Assembly (NCBI GenBank): GCA_964409645.1
Contig: CAYPEK010000006.1
Coordinates: forward strand, 16,823 to 80,822
Source of the DNA: an uncultured bacterium
GTDB taxonomy: Bacteria; UBP15; UBA6099
Direction: 5' to 3'
Length of the DNA stretch: 64,000 nt
In this document: piece by piece, positions 505 through 54,339 of the stretch
How the letters are laid out: every line of letters starts with the position of its first letter
How positions within the stretch are numbered: the stretch's first letter is position 1
Translations under genes and position numbers: made by a program
Notes under the pieces: generated by a model
Seen by the model: only the letters and a program-made list of their open reading frames with translations
Told to the model about the DNA's origin: nothing
The model's database searches: none

Positions 505-508
505 GTAT

Positions 509-721
509 TTACCACAAAGGCGCTAATAGAGACGGAATTTTTTAAAGGCCTCTGACGAGGCCTTTTTAAATAATTATTACCACAAAGACACCAAGACACT
601 AAGTAAAGCGTAGGGCAAACAAAGGCCTCTGACGAGGCCATGAAAGACAATGATTCACCACCAAGGCACAAAGACACAAAGAAAGACAAAAAATTAAGTA
701 ATGGCCTCTGACGAGGCCATA
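509..721. repeat. Three tandem forward copies of a roughly 70-bp unit: an ACCACAAAGACAC(CAAGACAC) motif followed by a GGCCTCTGACGAGGCC hairpin
   Basis: The motif TTACCACAAAG(G/A)C occurs at about 511, 576 and 655. Palindromic hairpins AAAGGCCTCTGACGAGGCC occur at 542-563, 621-641 and 700-720. The first hairpin is followed by a T-run and could also terminate lepA. Confidence 0.6.
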
Positions 722-846
722 GAAAACTGTTAATAAACTCTCGCAATACCAATCAGCAAAAATAAATATTTTCGGCACCCCTTTGTCGATTGCGTTATTT
801 GTGTATAAATAGGTTGTTAGCGAATTGTCAACGAGAGGAAATACCT

Positions 847-1251
847 ATGACGTCTAGTGTGGATGGCAATGCAGTCCCGATCGAAGCAAGCAGAGCCGCA
901 ACACAAATCGTCGATGCGGCATATCGTGTTCATACTTCTCTTGGCCCCGGCCTTATGGAAAGCGTTTATGAAGCATGCATGGAACATGAGTTGACGAAGC
1001 GTGAGCTAAAAGTTAAGCGACAAGTTTCTCAGGCTGTGGTTTATGACGGTATAAATATAGATGCAGGATTAAGAATTGATTTACTTGTGAACGATTGTGT
1101 AATCGTCGAGTTGAAAGCTGTTGAAAATCTACTGCCCGTGCACAAGGCACAATTGATAACATATCTGAAACTTACCGGCTTACGGCTTGGGCTGTTAATC
1201 AATTTCAATGTCCCCGTAATTAAAGACGGCATTAAGCGAATAGCACTTTAA
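847..1251 (+). CDS. GxxExxY family protein (PD-(D/E)XK nuclease-like, PDDEXK_3)
   Basis: Translation MTSSVDGN...GLMESVYEACMEHEL...RIDLLVNDCVIVELKAVENLLPVHKAQLITYLKLTGLRLGLLINFN carries the family signature GxxExxY plus the D..(D/E)xK core. GAGAGGA lies 9 nt upstream of the ATG at 847. GC is about 45% versus about 62% for the neighbours. Confidence 0.8.
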   Translation: MTSSVDGNAVPIEASRAATQIVDAAYRVHTSLGPGLMESVYEACMEHELTKRELKVKRQVSQAVVYDGINIDAGLRIDLLVNDCVIVELKAVENLLPVHKAQLITYLKLTGLRLGLLINFNVPVIKDGIKRIAL

Positions 1252-1278
1252 CCAGCTTTTATCATTGAACTGTACTTC

Positions 1279-1490
1279 AAGGCCTCTTCAGAGGCCTATG
1301 TTCGTTCTTTTGTTTTTCTTGGTGTCTTAGTGTCTTAGTGGTAAATCTTCATCTTTCAAGGCCTCGTCTGAGGTCGGTACATATCCCTTTGTATTTCTTC
1401 GTGTCTTGGTGTCTTTGTGGTGAATTTTTGTATTTAAAGGCCTCGTCAGAGGCCGGTTATATGCCTTTGTGTCTTTGTGGTGAAATCTTT
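1279..1490. repeat. Three tandem copies of the same roughly 70-bp unit in inverted orientation (hairpin first, then the reverse-complement motif GTGTCTT(A/G)GTGTCTTTGTGGT)
   Basis: Hairpins AAGGCCTCTTCAGAGGCC (1279-1298), GGCCTCGTCTGAGGTCGG (1359-1376, imperfect) and AAAGGCCTCGTCAGAGGCC (1437-1457) are each followed by the reverse complement of the ACCACAAAGACAC motif. The last copy abuts the REC gene stop at 1491. Confidence 0.6.
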
Positions 1491-3379: not shown

Positions 3380-4876
3380 TTATTCCGACATTTCGGCTTT
3401 CCGCCTCACCGGCAGGTAAACCTTGAATGTGGAGCCCTCACCGAGTTTGGACTCCGCCGAAATCCTGCCGCCGTGCGCTTCAACTATTTCCTTAATTATC
3501 GAGAGGCCGAGCCCGGTGCCCGAAATTTTGTGCGTGGCCTCGTTTCTTACTCTGAAAAATTCCTCGAACAAGCGTGATACCGCCTCCTCGGGGATGCCGA
3601 TTCCCGTGTCGGCGCACTCGATCAGAACCTGATTCGACCCCTGCTTCCGCAGCGAGACTCTGACCGAGCCGCCCTTTTTGTTGTACTTGATCGCGTTCGA
3701 CACGAGGTTAGTCAACAGTTCTTCCATGTTGCCGCGGTCTGCGTCCACCTGCGGGAAATCCGGCTCGACGTCCAGCTTGAGCGTAACCTGCATTTCGTCC
3801 GCATTGACTTTCAGCAAAATTATCGTGTCGCGCGCGATCTCGTCCAGCGGCACCGGCTCAAAGTTGCGCCGCAGCAATCCGGAGCGCATCTTCATCACCG
3901 ACAGCAGGTCGCCGATCAGCTTCAACAGCGACGCCGCCCGCTCGCGGGACCGCTCGAGAACTTCCTTCTGCTTTTCCGGCTTGCCGTCCAGCAACCCGTC
4001 GAGTATCAGGTCGAGATACCCCTGTATAGCGCCCACCGGCGCCTTGAGCTCGTGCGCCACCATGCGCACGAAGTTGAATTTCGCCTTGTCCAACTCCTTG
4101 AGCTTCGTCACATCCCGCAGCACCGCCACCGATCCGAGCGTCTCGCCGCTCTCGTTGTACACCGGCGACAGCAGCACCGACAGCACCAGTTCGCTCTTCT
4201 TTCCGAGAGTGATTTCCTCCTCCATCTTGAAGAAACCGTGACCGTCGCTGTCCGAAACGCCCCTCAACGCGTCGCCGATCTTTTCCACCAGCTCCGCCGT
4301 CTTGTCGTTGTCCGGATCGTCCTCGTCGAGCAAGTCGCGCAGCGCAGGATTGGTCAGGACGATGCGCCCCTCGCTGTCCGTCACGATTATCCCGTCGCCG
4401 ATGCTTTCAAGGATCGTTTTCAGCCGTCCCTTCTCATACGCGATGTCCTTCAGGCTCCGCTCGCGCTCCTTGAGCAGCTTCCGCTCCACCTTGCGCAGCC
4501 GCACCGTCTCCTCCGCGCGCTGCATTATGTACAGAAGCTCGTCCGGCGTGAACGGTTTCGACAGGTAGTCGTACGCGCCGACTTTCATCGCCTCCACCGC
4601 CGACGAGATCGACGCGTAACCCGTGATGACGATCGGCACTATCTCCACGCCCTTGCGCCGGATCGCCTCGATGACCTCGATCCCGGACAGCTTCGGCATT
4701 TTCAGGTCGATTATCGCTATGTCGTATTCGCCCGCCTCGATTTTCTCAAGCCCGGCCTGCCCATCTTCGGCGGTGTCCACCACGTATCCGGCGTCTTTAA
4801 GGATTATCAGACACCCGTCCCTGATGGACTTCTCGTCGTCAACAACAATTACTTTTGTATGGGCAGCTTCCATCAA
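3380..4876 (-). CDS. Hybrid signalling protein: N-terminal receiver, PAS, then HisKA and HATPase_c
   Basis: The N-terminus VIVVDDEKSIRDGC...DIAIIDLKMP...KP is a REC domain. A central segment LKTILESIGDGIIVTDSEGRIV is PAS-like. HELKAPVGAI is the H-box, and NLVSNAIKY, DTGIGI and GTGLGLSI are the ATPase boxes. Confidence 0.9.
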   Translation of the reverse strand: MMEAAHTKVIVVDDEKSIRDGCLIILKDAGYVVDTAEDGQAGLEKIEAGEYDIAIIDLKMPKLSGIEVIEAIRRKGVEIVPIVITGYASISSAVEAMKVGAYDYLSKPFTPDELLYIMQRAEETVRLRKVERKLLKERERSLKDIAYEKGRLKTILESIGDGIIVTDSEGRIVLTNPALRDLLDEDDPDNDKTAELVEKIGDALRGVSDSDGHGFFKMEEEITLGKKSELVLSVLLSPVYNESGETLGSVAVLRDVTKLKELDKAKFNFVRMVAHELKAPVGAIQGYLDLILDGLLDGKPEKQKEVLERSRERAASLLKLIGDLLSVMKMRSGLLRRNFEPVPLDEIARDTIILLKVNADEMQVTLKLDVEPDFPQVDADRGNMEELLTNLVSNAIKYNKKGGSVRVSLRKQGSNQVLIECADTGIGIPEEAVSRLFEEFFRVRNEATHKISGTGLGLSIIKEIVEAHGGRISAESKLGEGSTFKVYLPVRRKAEMSE

Positions 4877-5109
4877 GAACTTCCTCCCGAGCTGAATACC
4901 TTAGATGCCTGCCGGTTCTGGTTCGTGCAATCCGCCGGGTAAATAAACCCGACTTCCAACAGCGTTATAAGATGATATTATAATAGCATTAACGCGCGGT
5001 GCGAATACCTTAATTAATAATTATTATATTCCATTTCCGGAAAATTAAACAATCTTTGGATTTTTTCAGAATTTCAGCCGACCGACCCGGATCGGCAAGT
5101 GGAATATAA

Positions 5110-7140
5110 TTAAACTGCGCCGACCTCGTCGGCTTCCGCTATGTGCATTACGGGCAACCGGATTGTGAATGTGCTTCCCTTGCCCACCGTACTTTTCACA
5201 ATGATCGAGCCGCCGTGCTTGTCCACGATGCCGTGGGAAAGTGAAAGCCCCAGTCCGGTGCCTTTTATGCTCCCTTTTGTCGAAAAAAACGGGTCGAATA
5301 TTCTATTCAAATCCTCTTCGTTTATTCCACAGCCATTATCTGTGACGTTAATATCGACAAAACCGTTGTCGTTCGCGATATCCACCACAATCTCGCCCTC
5401 GCCTGAAATCGCCTGTACCGCGTTTATGACGATGTTCAAAAGCACCTGCTGGAGCTGCATCTTGTCGCCGCGGATCATCGGCGGCTTTCGTTCGAGATAA
5501 GGCTTTTTCACATTTATGTTCAGGAGCAGGCTCTGCTTTTCGAGGAGCGCGAAAACACGGTTAAGAAGCTCAACGGCGTCCACCGGCTCGAATTTCGGAT
5601 TGGTCTGTCGGGAAAAATCGAGAACGCCCTTCACGATCTCGCGCGCGCGCAACGTCTCGTCGATTATGTTGCGCAGCTTCGCCTTCTGCTCGTCGTCTTT
5701 CAGCGATTTGTCCAGAATGTTGGCAAAAAGCATTATTCCGCTGAGCGGATTATTTATTTCATGCGCGATGCCCGCCGCGAGACGCCCTATCGACGCCAGC
5801 TTCTCCACCCGGAAAATCTTCTGCTGCGCTTCCTTCATCCTCTCGTTGTACTCGATGAGCTGATCGATGATGTAGGGCAGACACATTTCGTTCTCGGCGA
5901 TCCCCTGATACACCGCCTTAGCCTTTTCGCGGCAGGTGCGGTATCCGCAGGCGCCGCAGTTGAGTTCATCCTCCGGGTTGTCCTTTTTGATTTCATGAAG
6001 GATCGCCCTGATCTCCTCCTCGGTCGGCTCCTTGAGGTCCATGTGTTCGTCCCCGAAGCGCCGCGTCAGATCGACATCATCGTATTCCGCGAGAATCTTT
6101 TCGAGCTCCTCGGCAGTAATCATTTTCGCGTTCTTCCGGGCGAATTCCGCGACAATTTCCTTGCGCTCGGTCAAGTTTGTGCCCGCAGGCATGAGCGGCC
6201 CGTTGATACAGCCCTCGCAAAAAAGCAGATCGAAGAATTTTGCCTTGGTCGTCCCTTTTTCAATCGATTCGAGCACATCCGGAACCCGGTCGTGGCCCTC
6301 AGCCACAATCATCTCATCGTTCAGGATGTCGTTCTGGAGCCCGGCGGTCCTCAGTAGGCCGCCGGAAACGGGATAGATACGGCCCAGACGCGCCGCCGGG
6401 CCGTCGAATTCCACCGGCTCCATTGCCTCAGGATCGATCCCGGCTTCGTCAAAAAGCGACTTCAATTCGGCGAAAGTGAGAACGGCGTCCACATCACCCG
6501 CAAGCTCGGTTTCCTCGCGTTCGAGCTTTTTCGATACGCACGGACCGGCGAACACAACCTTCGCGCCGGGTTTGTATTTTTCCTTGACCGCGCGGGCGGC
6601 CGCAATCATGGGCGAAACCACCGGCACGAAGAACGGGACGAGCTTCGGATGATATTTTTCGATGTATTTAACGAGGGTCGGGCACGGAGTCGCGATCAGC
6701 GGCCCCTCCGGCCGGTCTTTAAGGACTTTTTTGTAAGCGCGGCTGACGAGTTCTGCGCCGAACGCCACTTCTATGACATCCGAGAAACCAAGCTTCTTCG
6801 AGGCGGCAATCACCTTTCCGGGGTCAATGTCTTTGAACGCCGCCGGGAACGACGGGGCAAGTATCAGAACCACCGGCTCCGGCCACCCGAGAAGCGCTTT
6901 GGCAACCGACGCGCCGTCCTGAATGCGCTTGGCGTTCTGCGCGCACATCCGCACGCAGTTCCCGCAGGCGATGCAACGCTCGCTCATCACCCACGCCTGC
7001 CCCTGCTTGACGCCGATCGCCTTCACCGGGCAGTTGCGAATGCACGAATAGCACTGCCGGCACTTGTTCTCGATCGTGCTGACGACTCCCCGGCTGGTGT
7101 CCGGGGTGTACAATTTGCCCATCACTTCGTCAGGCGCCAT
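5110..7140 (-). CDS. Sensor histidine kinase whose input module is two ferredoxin-type 4Fe-4S motifs plus an [FeFe]-hydrogenase large-subunit (H-domain)-like fold
   Basis: The N-terminus has CRQCYSCIRNCP and CIACGNCVRMC ferredoxin motifs. A roughly 330-aa region follows with an H-domain-like spacing of Cys motifs: ATPCPTLV (compare TSCCPxW), AGPCVSKKLE (compare MPCxxKxxE) and FCEGCINGP (compare ExMxCxxGCxxG). Next comes a Cys cluster NCGACGYRTCREK...MC. The C-terminus has HisKA (IAHEINNPLSGI) and HATPase boxes (NIVINAVQA, DNGCGI, GTGLGLS). Confidence 0.85.
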   Translation of the reverse strand: MAPDEVMGKLYTPDTSRGVVSTIENKCRQCYSCIRNCPVKAIGVKQGQAWVMSERCIACGNCVRMCAQNAKRIQDGASVAKALLGWPEPVVLILAPSFPAAFKDIDPGKVIAASKKLGFSDVIEVAFGAELVSRAYKKVLKDRPEGPLIATPCPTLVKYIEKYHPKLVPFFVPVVSPMIAAARAVKEKYKPGAKVVFAGPCVSKKLEREETELAGDVDAVLTFAELKSLFDEAGIDPEAMEPVEFDGPAARLGRIYPVSGGLLRTAGLQNDILNDEMIVAEGHDRVPDVLESIEKGTTKAKFFDLLFCEGCINGPLMPAGTNLTERKEIVAEFARKNAKMITAEELEKILAEYDDVDLTRRFGDEHMDLKEPTEEEIRAILHEIKKDNPEDELNCGACGYRTCREKAKAVYQGIAENEMCLPYIIDQLIEYNERMKEAQQKIFRVEKLASIGRLAAGIAHEINNPLSGIMLFANILDKSLKDDEQKAKLRNIIDETLRAREIVKGVLDFSRQTNPKFEPVDAVELLNRVFALLEKQSLLLNINVKKPYLERKPPMIRGDKMQLQQVLLNIVINAVQAISGEGEIVVDIANDNGFVDINVTDNGCGINEEDLNRIFDPFFSTKGSIKGTGLGLSLSHGIVDKHGGSIIVKSTVGKGSTFTIRLPVMHIAEADEVGAV

Positions 7141-52299: not shown

Positions 52300-54339
52300 T
52301 CACTGCATTGCGGAGAAAATCAGATCCTCGAAATCACTTTTGTCGAATGGTTTCTGCAGAAACGCAAACGCTCCCTTGCGCATGAAGTTCCGCACCTGAT
52401 CCTCCGCCACGGTTTCCGAACAGACGATAATTTTCACATCCGGGCTGATCATTCTAAGACTCTGGAACACATGAGCGCCGTTCATGTCGCGCATCAGCAT
52501 ATCGAGAATCACTATGTCAAACCCGCCTGGATTGCTTTTCAACAGGTGGACCCCCTCCGCGCCCGACGAAACGACGACAGGCGTGATCCCCCCCACTGTC
52601 AGAATATCCTTCATTGCCTCGACCGAGGCCGCGTCGTCGTCGATGATAAGTATTTTCGAGCCGCCCGATTCTTTCGGCACAGCTTCCGCAGCAGCCTGTT
52701 GTTTCGCCGGACCGGATGGCAGATAGATCGAAAACTTGGTTCCATCGCCGCTCTTCACATCTATGATGCCGCCGTGCATCCGGATTATTCCCTGAGTGAT
52801 TGAGAGGCCAAGCCCGGACCCTTTCCCAAGTTCCTTGGTCGTGAAAAACGGATCGAATATTTTCGATATCACATCTTCGGGAATGCCGCAGCCGGTATCG
52901 GCGATTGTGATAACGCAATACTCGCCCTCATGGAGCTCCGGCCGCGCCTCATCTTTGCCGATTGTCACCGGCGCTGTGGATACCGTCAGAGTGCCGGTTT
53001 CAGGCATCGCATCACACGCGTTGATACATACGTTAAGGAGCGCCTGATGTATCTGATTGGCGTCGGCGTTTATCGTCTGCCCGCCTTCCGCGGACACGCA
53101 AACTTCTATCCTTTTCGGAACAATATCTCGGAGCATCTGCCCAAGGTCCGACATGATTGTTTCAACCGGAATAGATCTGATAATCAGATTGTCCGTCCTT
53201 GCGAATGTGAGCAGCCGTTGGCAGATGGATCGCGCGCGAAGGGCATTGTTTATGATCCTGTCGAGACGTGCGGCGTTATTATTCCCGTCGGCCGTTGCGG
53301 CGCGGACTATTTCCGCCGACCCGAGCATCACCGCAATTATATTATTGAACTCGTGGGATATTTCACCTGCGAGTTTTCCGAGCGCGTCCATTTTCTGCGA
53401 CTGGAGAAGCTGCCTGTGAGCCTCCACAAGGTCGCGCGTCCGTTCTTTCACTAGTTCTTCGAGGTGCTCCTTGTGGCGCTTGAGTTCAAGTTCGGCATTA
53501 CGCCTGTCGGTGATGTCGTAAGCAATCGCGATCAGGTATTTGAGGTCTTCGCTTGCTTTGAAAAGCGATTTTTCCGCCACCTGCCACCTTATATTGCCTT
53601 GAGGGTCCGTGATGCATTCTTCATTCACGTTCGGCTTGCCAGTCTCGAACACCTCTGCCTCTTTTGTCTTGAATATGTCCGCTTCTTCCTTCCTGATGAA
53701 GTCATGGTCCGTCTTTCCTATCAATTCCTCTCGCGGTTTCCCGAATATGTCCGATATGACTTTGTTGATGAGTATCCATCTGTGATTCTGGTCCTTCACC
53801 GCCAGCGGATGCGGCACGGCGTCCACAACAGCGTTCAGAAAATCGCGGGTTGTCCTGAGTTCCTTTTCGCTTTTTTCGCGCTCCTCCATCTCTTTTTTAA
53901 GTTGCCGGTTGGATTCTTCGAGTTCCTTTACTTTTTCGCGGAGCCGGCTTTCGAGTTGCAGGGATTTGTCCATAAAGGACTTTTCAAGCTCTTTCAATAC
54001 CGTGACGTTTGACACTTTAATCAGTATCAAACCGTTCTTCAAAGGAAGCATTGTTGCATTCCAATATCCTTCCCGGTTCTTGTCAATTATATGAACCGGT
54101 TTATTCCCCTCGATGCATCTGAGAACGGCATTTTTTCTCGGGCCGGCCACATCCTCCGGAAAATAGTCCCACATGTTGGTTCCAATTACTGATTCCGTGT
54201 TTTTATTCACACGTTGCGCCATTGCTTCATTACAGTAAACCACCTTCCCGCCCGCCTCTATCACGCATATAAATTCAGGCAGCAGACGCAGAATCTGCTC
54301 GAAGAAACTTGTATCGTTTTGTTTTTCTTCTTCTGCCAT
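52300..54339 (-). CDS. Hybrid sensor histidine kinase: two PAS domains, coiled coil, HisKA, HATPase_c and a C-terminal receiver
   Basis: The PAS-like regions are [24 protein letters not shown] and [25 protein letters not shown]. The H-box is EISHEFNN, and the ATPase boxes are [15 protein letters not shown] and GSGLGLSI. The REC domain is [16 protein letters not shown]...DIVILDMLM...KP. Confidence 0.85.

Follow-up and report, generated by a model that had tools for sequence, protein, structure and literature searches.

The window analysed here is a stretch of 64,000 nucleotides from contig CAYPEK010000006.1 of an uncultured bacterium (GTDB lineage UBP15; UBA6099), and the object of study is its segment 505–1490, in which a small gene of the GxxExxY family is bracketed by inverted arrays of short repeats. 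As the original prediction had stated, the segment fills exactly the space, 986 bp long, between the stop codons of two convergent genes. On the left lies the 3' part of lepA (1–504, + strand, stop codon TAA at 502–504; PF06421, LepA_C, 1.1e-51), whose full product of 603 aa is encoded in L001 (L numbers denote the loci used for comparison), and on the right a gene coding for a response-regulator receiver (REC) protein (1491–1862, − strand; PF00072, 7e-21), the first of a signalling block in which REC and histidine kinase (HK) genes follow one another as REC-HK-REC-HK. The central gene (847–1251, + strand) is intact and codes for a protein of 134 aa, recognised by both PF13366 (PDDEXK_3; 147.3 bits with a cut-off of 22, 3e-43) and TIGR04256 (152.8 bits with a cut-off of 35, 4e-45), which bears out its predicted assignment. 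The G+C content of this open reading frame (ORF) is 43.5%, close to the 45% or so estimated originally, and that of the whole segment 41.3%, while it reaches 57.3% in lepA and 59.2% in the REC and HK genes. The segment lies 16–18 percentage points under its host flanks, and its foreign-looking, insertion-like character is supported.

The repeats comprise three forward copies to the left of the gene and three reverse-complement copies to the right, as predicted, with six units of 60–84 nt located where about 70 bp had been proposed; their pairwise identity is 58–75%. Read from the outer end inward, a unit consists of ACCAC with tandem 8-nt CAC-N-AAG-R repeats (the arm), a spacer, and a GGCCTC-N4-GAGGCC hairpin. 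On the + strand, the outermost unit L1 (511–578) has a degenerate arm at 511–533 (ACCACAAAGGCGC...) and a GC hairpin at 547–562, followed by TTTTT, L2 (579–656) has its arm at 579–606 (ACCAC AAAGACAC CAAGACAC TAAG) and hairpin at 624–639, and the innermost L3 (657 to about 740) has its arm at 657–692 (ACCAC CAAGGCAC AAAGACAC AAAG...) and hairpin at 703–718. On the − strand, the innermost unit R3 (about 1262 to 1342) comprises a hairpin at 1281–1296 and an arm at 1315–1342, R2 (1345–1421) a hairpin at 1360–1375 with one mismatch and an arm at 1394–1421, whose 21-nt core equals that of L2, and the outermost R1 (1425–1484) a hairpin at 1439–1454 and an arm at 1461–1484. The segment thus possesses terminal inverted repeats, the inverted arms being up to 106 nt long and 75–80% complementary. 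Pairing of the left and right units by similarity (Li with Ri) lends weak support to an arrangement in nested layers. The hairpin pattern GGCCTCNNNNGAGGCC is found six times in the segment and once elsewhere in the window (a chance match with one mismatch, at 52615), with 0.16 occurrences expected, and all five occurrences of ACCACAAAGACACMAAGACAC with up to three mismatches fall in the segment (0.00 expected).

Between L3 and the gene there is an AT-rich spacer (741–846) with a Shine-Dalgarno-like GAGAGGA at 833–839, 7 nt before the ATG; the promoter scan scored no sigma-70 consensus promoter in it. The flanks of the gene are non-coding units of 60–84 nt, and no insertion sequence (IS) copies bracket the cargo. 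No transposase of a recognised family (DDE, HUH, serine or tyrosine recombinase) is encoded in the element, as its sole ORF matches PF13366 alone. The Rfam 15 covariance models gave chance-level matches only with 300–1700 of the window and with seven palindrome-rich loci.

Inverted arms accompany GxxExxY genes

The arms are a partner of the gene throughout the family. A species scan with one genome per species yielded 80 loci from at least 12 phyla, of which the 77 single-gene loci were analysed with the stringent 11-mer CACNNAGRCAC, counted within 300 bp of the gene. It was found at 53 of them, in forward orientation upstream at 44, in reverse orientation downstream at 47, and on both sides at 38. 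The density of the 11-mer in the inward orientation is 3.56 and 3.93 per kb within 300 bp, 0.03–0.10 per kb beyond that distance, and zero inside the gene. With relaxed patterns of period 8 or 9, arms are present at about 76 of 89 genes, and the seven inspected loci missing the stringent 11-mer all have variant periodic arms; among them are Akkermansia (GAACCGCCAAGACGCCAAGATCGCCAAG, 37 nt, 95% complementary) and Dolichospermum (CACGCAGAGACGCAGAGGCGCAGAG). In the window copy itself, inward arms flank the gene on both sides within the same 300 bp.

The consensus of 167 arm instances is tt(a)ACCAC-NAAGRCAC-NAAGRCAC-NAAG. It describes an outer cap, (T-K-M)ACCAC, and behind it a tandem series of two to seven CAC-N-RAG-R units of 8 nt, with one inward arm on each side of the gene. 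In two related loci, situated in a PFK-thioredoxin context, two copies of ACCACGGAGACACYAAGACAC precede the gene and two of its reverse complement follow it; the GGCCTC hairpin is missing. Since the same arm recurs family-wide without that hairpin, the conserved entity is the periodic arm of about 24 nt, and the repeat of about 70 bp put forward originally has to be replaced by it: the 60–84-nt unit with its GC hairpin is specific to the window locus. All units within one element are of the same subtype, AAG or GAG.

In many loci the element is compact, with an arm-to-arm span of 434–483 bp; the forward arm overlaps the N-terminus of the gene product and the reverse arm directly follows the stop codon. 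The annotated N-terminus MNHQDTKTPR, shared by many homologues, is a translation of ATGAACCACCAAGACACCAAGACACC, and some C-terminal tails of the type ...VPSCLCG are the reverse arm translated. The number of units is variable. There are four tandem 44-bp reverse-arm units in L156 (1968–2165) and seven consecutive GAAGGCAC units in one arm of L109 (3547–3620), while in L069 three or four tandem arm units stand on each side of a Cytophagales GxxExxY gene (2820–2910 and 3400–3520) in the opposite arrangement, [F..RRR] gene [FFFF..RR], where F and R denote forward and reverse arms.

Palindromes without the gene, nesting and other cargo

A scan for the motif ACCACNAAGRCACNAAGRCAC alone gave 63 loci from a viral-contig collection and at least 120 metagenome loci, which were checked for the gene by tblastn with 33 diverse GxxExxY proteins. 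It was detected in none of the 63 viral-collection loci and in two of the 120 metagenome loci among the matches listed (two of 183 overall). The arm is therefore common without a GxxExxY gene nearby, which is half of what the original prediction had named as speaking against its interpretation, but nearly every such gene has arms, about 50–100-fold enriched beside it. Gene implies arms almost universally and arms rarely imply gene, which is an asymmetry of the kind known from repetitive extragenic palindromes (REP) and their REP-associated tyrosine transposases (RAYT), not a lack of association.

The motif-selected loci, 1.27 Mb in all, contain at least 122 gene-less palindromes of the arm-loop-arm type, with a median total length of 76 nt, in genomes of 47–71% G+C. 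They are depleted in long ORFs, 47% lying fully outside ORFs of at least 200 aa in comparison with 15% of random segments, and solo palindromes have no U-tracts. The two arms of a gene-less palindrome agree at the N and R positions no better than expected by chance (0.33 vs 0.36 after permutation), which indicates that each arm keeps a consensus of its own, as a protein-binding site would, and is not merely complementary to its partner. A strand asymmetry of wobble-compatible mismatches was considered as well; it proved not robust and was dropped.

Palindromes of the form F F ... R R, with layers of different subtype (GAG and AAG) nested in one another, were found in L151, L160, L194, and L201, and in L194 the inner element lies at the centre of the outer palindrome. 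This nesting of mixed subtypes and the central position in L194 argue that one element was inserted at the apex of another, and the F F F-gene-R R R layering in the window could be explained in the same way. Moreover, the uniform subtype of each element, together with the coexistence and nesting of two subtypes in one genome, fits replicating lineages.

Besides GxxExxY genes, arm pairs enclose other cargo: a gene for a 130-aa protein matching only phrog_38816, of unknown function, in L127 (3034–3490), a 59-aa ORF in L116 (954–1200), and in L258 (3277–4640) an ORF of 320 aa on the − strand, which contains further periodic repeats. Where gene tables or ORFs were inspected, no transposase gene came to notice; the ORFs of the motif-selected loci were not screened systematically. 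The proposal that the segment is a composite or a selfish insertion associated with miniature inverted-repeat transposable elements (MITEs) therefore holds in part. The segment looks foreign, its arms belong with GxxExxY genes, and gene-less, MITE-like versions exist, while the composite transposon falls, as there are no IS copies and PF13366 is the sole protein family matched in the segment.

The GxxExxY protein

The family motif is present in the window protein as G35-x-x-E38-x-x-Y41. The protein keeps all 27 invariant columns of a 33-sequence alignment, E38, Y41, D78, E88, and K90 among them, so that the putative catalytic residues D78, E88, and K90 (D...ExK) are intact, and the fold is confidently that of a PD-(D/E)XK nuclease. 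Sequence search of the PDB found no solved relative. PADLOC gave marginal Cas4 and PD-T4-6 matches only (best E 0.005) and PHROGs no match to the protein; no match came from the phage genome collection, and of the plasmids none matched by DNA and only seven by protein. The family is a very large one, with 19,436 clusters at 50% identity (E ≤ 1e-3), and homologues of about 70% identity occur in Planctomycetota, Verrucomicrobiota, Armatimonadota, Cyanobacteria, Chloroflexota, and others.

Literature searches with GxxExxY, PF13366, TIGR04256, and the motif strings returned only a 2012 catalogue entry ('Unknown') and unrelated matches. The searchable literature, that is, without subscription literature and curators' notes, gives the function as 'unknown, multiple transfers' and holds no paper that describes the arms or assigns GxxExxY a function; no Rfam family and no defence family does so either.

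Some members, such as P0361–P0363, P0365, and P0369 (P numbers denote proteins), are about 275–295 aa long, with two stretches that match the 134-aa query. Apparently two GxxExxY domains are fused in tandem in them, or else two adjacent genes were read through by the gene caller, and such two-domain members hint at a dimeric working unit. A homologue on plasmid 1 of Gemmatirosa kalamazoonensis (L289, 19850–20480) matches in two pieces, so that the gene may have suffered a frameshift or be a pseudogene; an arm variant with a 9–10-nt period (GAACCGCAGAGGACGCAGAGGGCCGCAGAGG) and an adjoining gene-less palindrome flank it.

Genomic context, gain and loss

All contigs with an identical REC protein that reach past the REC stop carry the element, one of them (L089) breaking off within the right repeat array. 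The closest strain (L092) is 97.6% identical in nucleotide sequence over the signalling block, with 99% identity in HK, and keeps ...TGA AAAATTCACCACAAA. Its homology with the window ends at 1474, inside the arm of the outermost unit R1, and is followed by unrelated AT-rich DNA. This allele is a rearranged one and not an empty site, and no allele in which lepA directly adjoins REC was found, although such alleles had been proposed as a check. HK orthologues of 70–72% identity have other neighbours (MerR-REC).

Other differences between the closest strain and the window were also recorded. Beside REC in L092 (5420–9032), the GxxExxY element and lepA are replaced by AT-rich DNA that codes for a protein of about 1150 aa, with pentapeptide repeats at its C-terminus. 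A 1.5-kb insertion (L092, 319–1819), comprising a DUF3800 gene and two small ORFs, corresponds to about 5074–5109 of the window, the gap between the PAS-HK gene and a hydrogenase-like kinase gene. The latter (window 5110–7140, − strand, 676 aa) has orthologues in L090 and L092 that combine [FeFe]-hydrogenase large-subunit, Fe-S, and HisKA/HATPase domains, and it has the look of a hydrogenase-like sensor histidine kinase at the head of the REC/HK block.

Presence and absence of an element between close relatives were observed in Bacteroides. In B. finegoldii the arrangement is radA-[arm-GxxExxY-arm]-FAD-dependent protein, while a relative with a 98%-identical RadA has an unrelated, non-homologous spacer of 80 bp in that place, with no residual arm. 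It is common for elements to lie within operons, the arms being only a few nucleotides from the stop or start codons of the neighbours, as in hisH-hisA, hsdS-hsdM, and radA-FAD protein; another site is downstream of atpD. Sequences flanking the arm ends are inverted, not direct. A 4-bp duplication of TGAA, which was also tried, agrees with a few loci (L008, L299) and not with the arm profiles in general.

A verrucomicrobial type I restriction-modification operon deserves separate mention. It has the order hsdS-GxxExxY-hsdM (alignment A3: L099, L101, L103, and L105 vs L096, L097, L100, and L102), and in some genomes a diverged duplicate of the first ca. 95 bp of hsdM precedes a gene-less arm palindrome. 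In others hsdM has a single start, which looks like a recombinant of both copies, and in L008 (3385–3580) the same junction is followed by no more of hsdM than its C-terminal part. It seems that arm palindromes mark breakpoints of duplication and deletion.

Interpretation and alternative explanations

We regard 511–1484 as one copy of a family of small, selfish, palindrome-bounded elements, spread over many phyla and acquired horizontally, whose nuclease acts on the arms, and we give this reading about an even chance of being right. In particular, we infer that the arms are the substrate of the nuclease, that the nuclease drives their spread and that it targets apices. The element would be defined by its central signature gene, coding for a GxxExxY PD-(D/E)XK nuclease of ca. 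125 aa, the window copy being a variant with three arm units per side and locus-specific 16-nt GC hairpins that would have entered by horizontal transfer exactly into the gap between two convergent host genes. The nuclease, probably a dimer, would work on the two-fold symmetric arm pair, both at the ends of its own element and in the commoner gene-less palindromes, and its relation to the arms would be that of RAYT to REP and REP doublets forming hairpins (REPINs), or of an autonomous IS to MITEs. Gene boundaries and the apices of palindromes already present would be the landing sites of new copies; an insertion at an apex would give rise to nested layers, F F F ... R R R, as seen in the window. 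In a read-through transcript the arms would pair into a long stem that joins its 5' and 3' sides and encloses the ORF, and this stem may restrain both expression and polar effects. A more far-reaching proposal, possible but doubtful in our view, is that GxxExxY proteins are the mobilising nucleases of a new class of mobile elements, made up of autonomous units of ca. 450–500 bp and abundant MITE- or REPIN-like gene-less palindromes with the same periodic arms, in more than 12 phyla, which insert at gene boundaries or palindrome apices and leave no target duplications. Autonomous units of that size would be smaller than any IS known to us.

Several observations weigh against the proposed role of the nuclease in mobility. 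Neither a transposition event nor a precise empty site was found, and there is no target-site duplication at the window ends, where the proposed comparison of 505–510 with 1485–1491 gives GTATTT and GAAATC and so no direct repeat, or in the filled and empty pair from Bacteroides. Searches of the 64-kb window by pattern, blastn, and tblastn revealed no further copy of arm or gene. Paralogues within one contig are divergent, with 49–60% identity to the query, unlike those of a recently active IS, and the identical protein P0037 was found at one locus, hsdS-hsdM, in all ten places shown, from many samples. The subtype of the arm (AAG or GAG) does not track the protein clade in a co-variation test. 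The other cargo in L127, L116, and L258 means that GxxExxY need not be the mobilising enzyme. Finally, we know of no strand-transfer chemistry in a PD-(D/E)XK domain of 125 aa, and double-stranded DNA is not usually recognised with a period of 8 nt.

The main rival explanation, which we consider unlikely, is that the arms act mainly at the RNA level, where they would serve to process or stabilise the mRNA, to control translation of the nuclease or to insulate the neighbouring genes of the operon, and that the gene codes for a cellular or defence nuclease spread by ordinary horizontal transfer and recombination. Structure prediction pairs the left array as a whole with the right one around the ORF, at a minimum free energy of −364 kcal/mol, RNA from either strand would have a C/A-rich 5' arm and a G/U-rich 3' arm, and the start codon ATGAACCAC is often supplied by the forward arm; the placement in operons close to neighbouring codons and the fixed locus of the P0037 lineage also agree with this explanation. 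It is opposed by the chance-level complementarity at the variable positions of gene-less palindromes and by the lack of an Rfam match, and it leaves unexplained the conservation of the arms over at least 12 phyla, the excess of gene-less copies, and the nesting of mixed subtypes. An RNA-level role could, however, coexist with mobility. If, instead, the arms were MITE-like ends moved in trans by a conventional transposase, GxxExxY would be only the commonest passenger. The other cargo found between arms, the much lower number of gene-bearing than of gene-less copies, and the many arm ends of the form 5'-TGAACCAC...GTGGTTCA-3', that is, TG...CA, are in its favour, but passenger status is hard to reconcile with arms at nearly every GxxExxY gene, and with neither target-site duplications nor a transposase noticed in the inspected loci (the motif-selected ones lacking a systematic screen) we consider such a mechanism distinctly unlikely.

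It is highly improbable that the repeats are ordinary REP or terminator hairpins of the host filling intergenic gaps. Each unit does contain a GC hairpin, T-rich runs after L1 and R1 face the ends of lepA and REC, and arm palindromes elsewhere are mostly intergenic; nevertheless, the enrichment beside GxxExxY genes, 50–100-fold and with a fixed inward orientation in many phyla, and the G+C content of the segment largely exclude this origin, to which may be added the absence of a further copy in 63 kb of the same genome and of U-tracts in the solo palindromes. Hardly credible at all is a module similar to type III toxin-antitoxin systems, in which the upstream tandem repeats would give rise to an antitoxin RNA. 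Three tandem hairpin repeats of ca. 78 nt do precede the gene, but mirror-image repeats also follow it, most members of the family have a single arm per side overlapping the ends of the ORF, the defence and phage databases returned nothing beyond the marginal PADLOC matches, and gene-less palindromes are scattered.

Comparison with known systems

For the reading favoured here, that of a palindrome-bounded element with its own nuclease, the REP/RAYT system would be the closest functional analogue, although the HUH enzyme that defines it is absent. Both feature a single small enzyme gene flanked by inverted short palindromic repeats, a repeat far commoner as gene-less extragenic palindromes, and no target-site duplications. 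They differ in the enzyme, a PD-(D/E)XK nuclease here and an HUH/Y1 transposase (Y1_Tnp) in RAYT, and in the repeat, which consists of tandem arms with an 8-nt period here and of a hairpin with a conserved tetranucleotide in REP. Moreover, GxxExxY genes are often multi-copy and horizontally transferred, with one arm consensus across phyla, while RAYT and REP are lineage-specific.

Elements of the IS200/IS605 type with their palindrome-associated transposable elements (PATEs), and IS with their MITEs, resemble the present family in their very small size, a single enzyme of ca. 130–150 aa, hairpin-forming ends, the lack of duplications and the existence of short gene-less derivatives. Here, in contrast, the arms are symmetric and inverted, there is neither an HUH enzyme nor TnpB, the copies found in one genome diverge from each other, and the compact elements, at ca. 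435–485 bp, are below the size of any autonomous IS known. The nested palindromes of L194 and L160, which suggest insertion into the middle of a palindrome, recall IS1397 and ISKpn1, which target REP palindromes and bacterial interspersed mosaic elements (BIMEs); these, however, are DDE elements of the IS3 family with target duplications, whereas here the insert and the target share the arm family. The intervening sequences of 23S rRNA with TIGR02436 four-helix-bundle genes are similar in having a small multi-copy gene of unknown function between inverted repeats, from which a stem arises in the transcript, and in being tolerated inside transcription units, but their protein has another fold and the present elements have no rRNA context. 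Compared with other PD-(D/E)XK proteins, namely the Cas4/RecB type, the minimal Hjc type and Rpn (YhgA-like, the PDDEXK_2 'putative transposases'), GxxExxY has no Fe-S cluster and no extra domains; to Cas4 the sequence similarity is marginal only (PADLOC E about 0.005), and a CRISPR context is lacking.

Significance

The arms explain the spurious extensions, MNHQDTK... at the N-terminus and SCLCG at the C-terminus, in thousands of annotated proteins, and they may contribute to the many contigs of ca. 1–2 kb that carry GxxExxY genes. They also seem to mark rearrangement hotspots inside operons such as hsdS-hsdM. For the GxxExxY family, the periodic inverted arm provides the first concrete, testable hypothesis as to the DNA on which these nucleases act. 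If the nuclease drives the palindromes, the family would represent a second, mechanistically different solution of the REP/RAYT type and possibly the smallest autonomous mobile element known.

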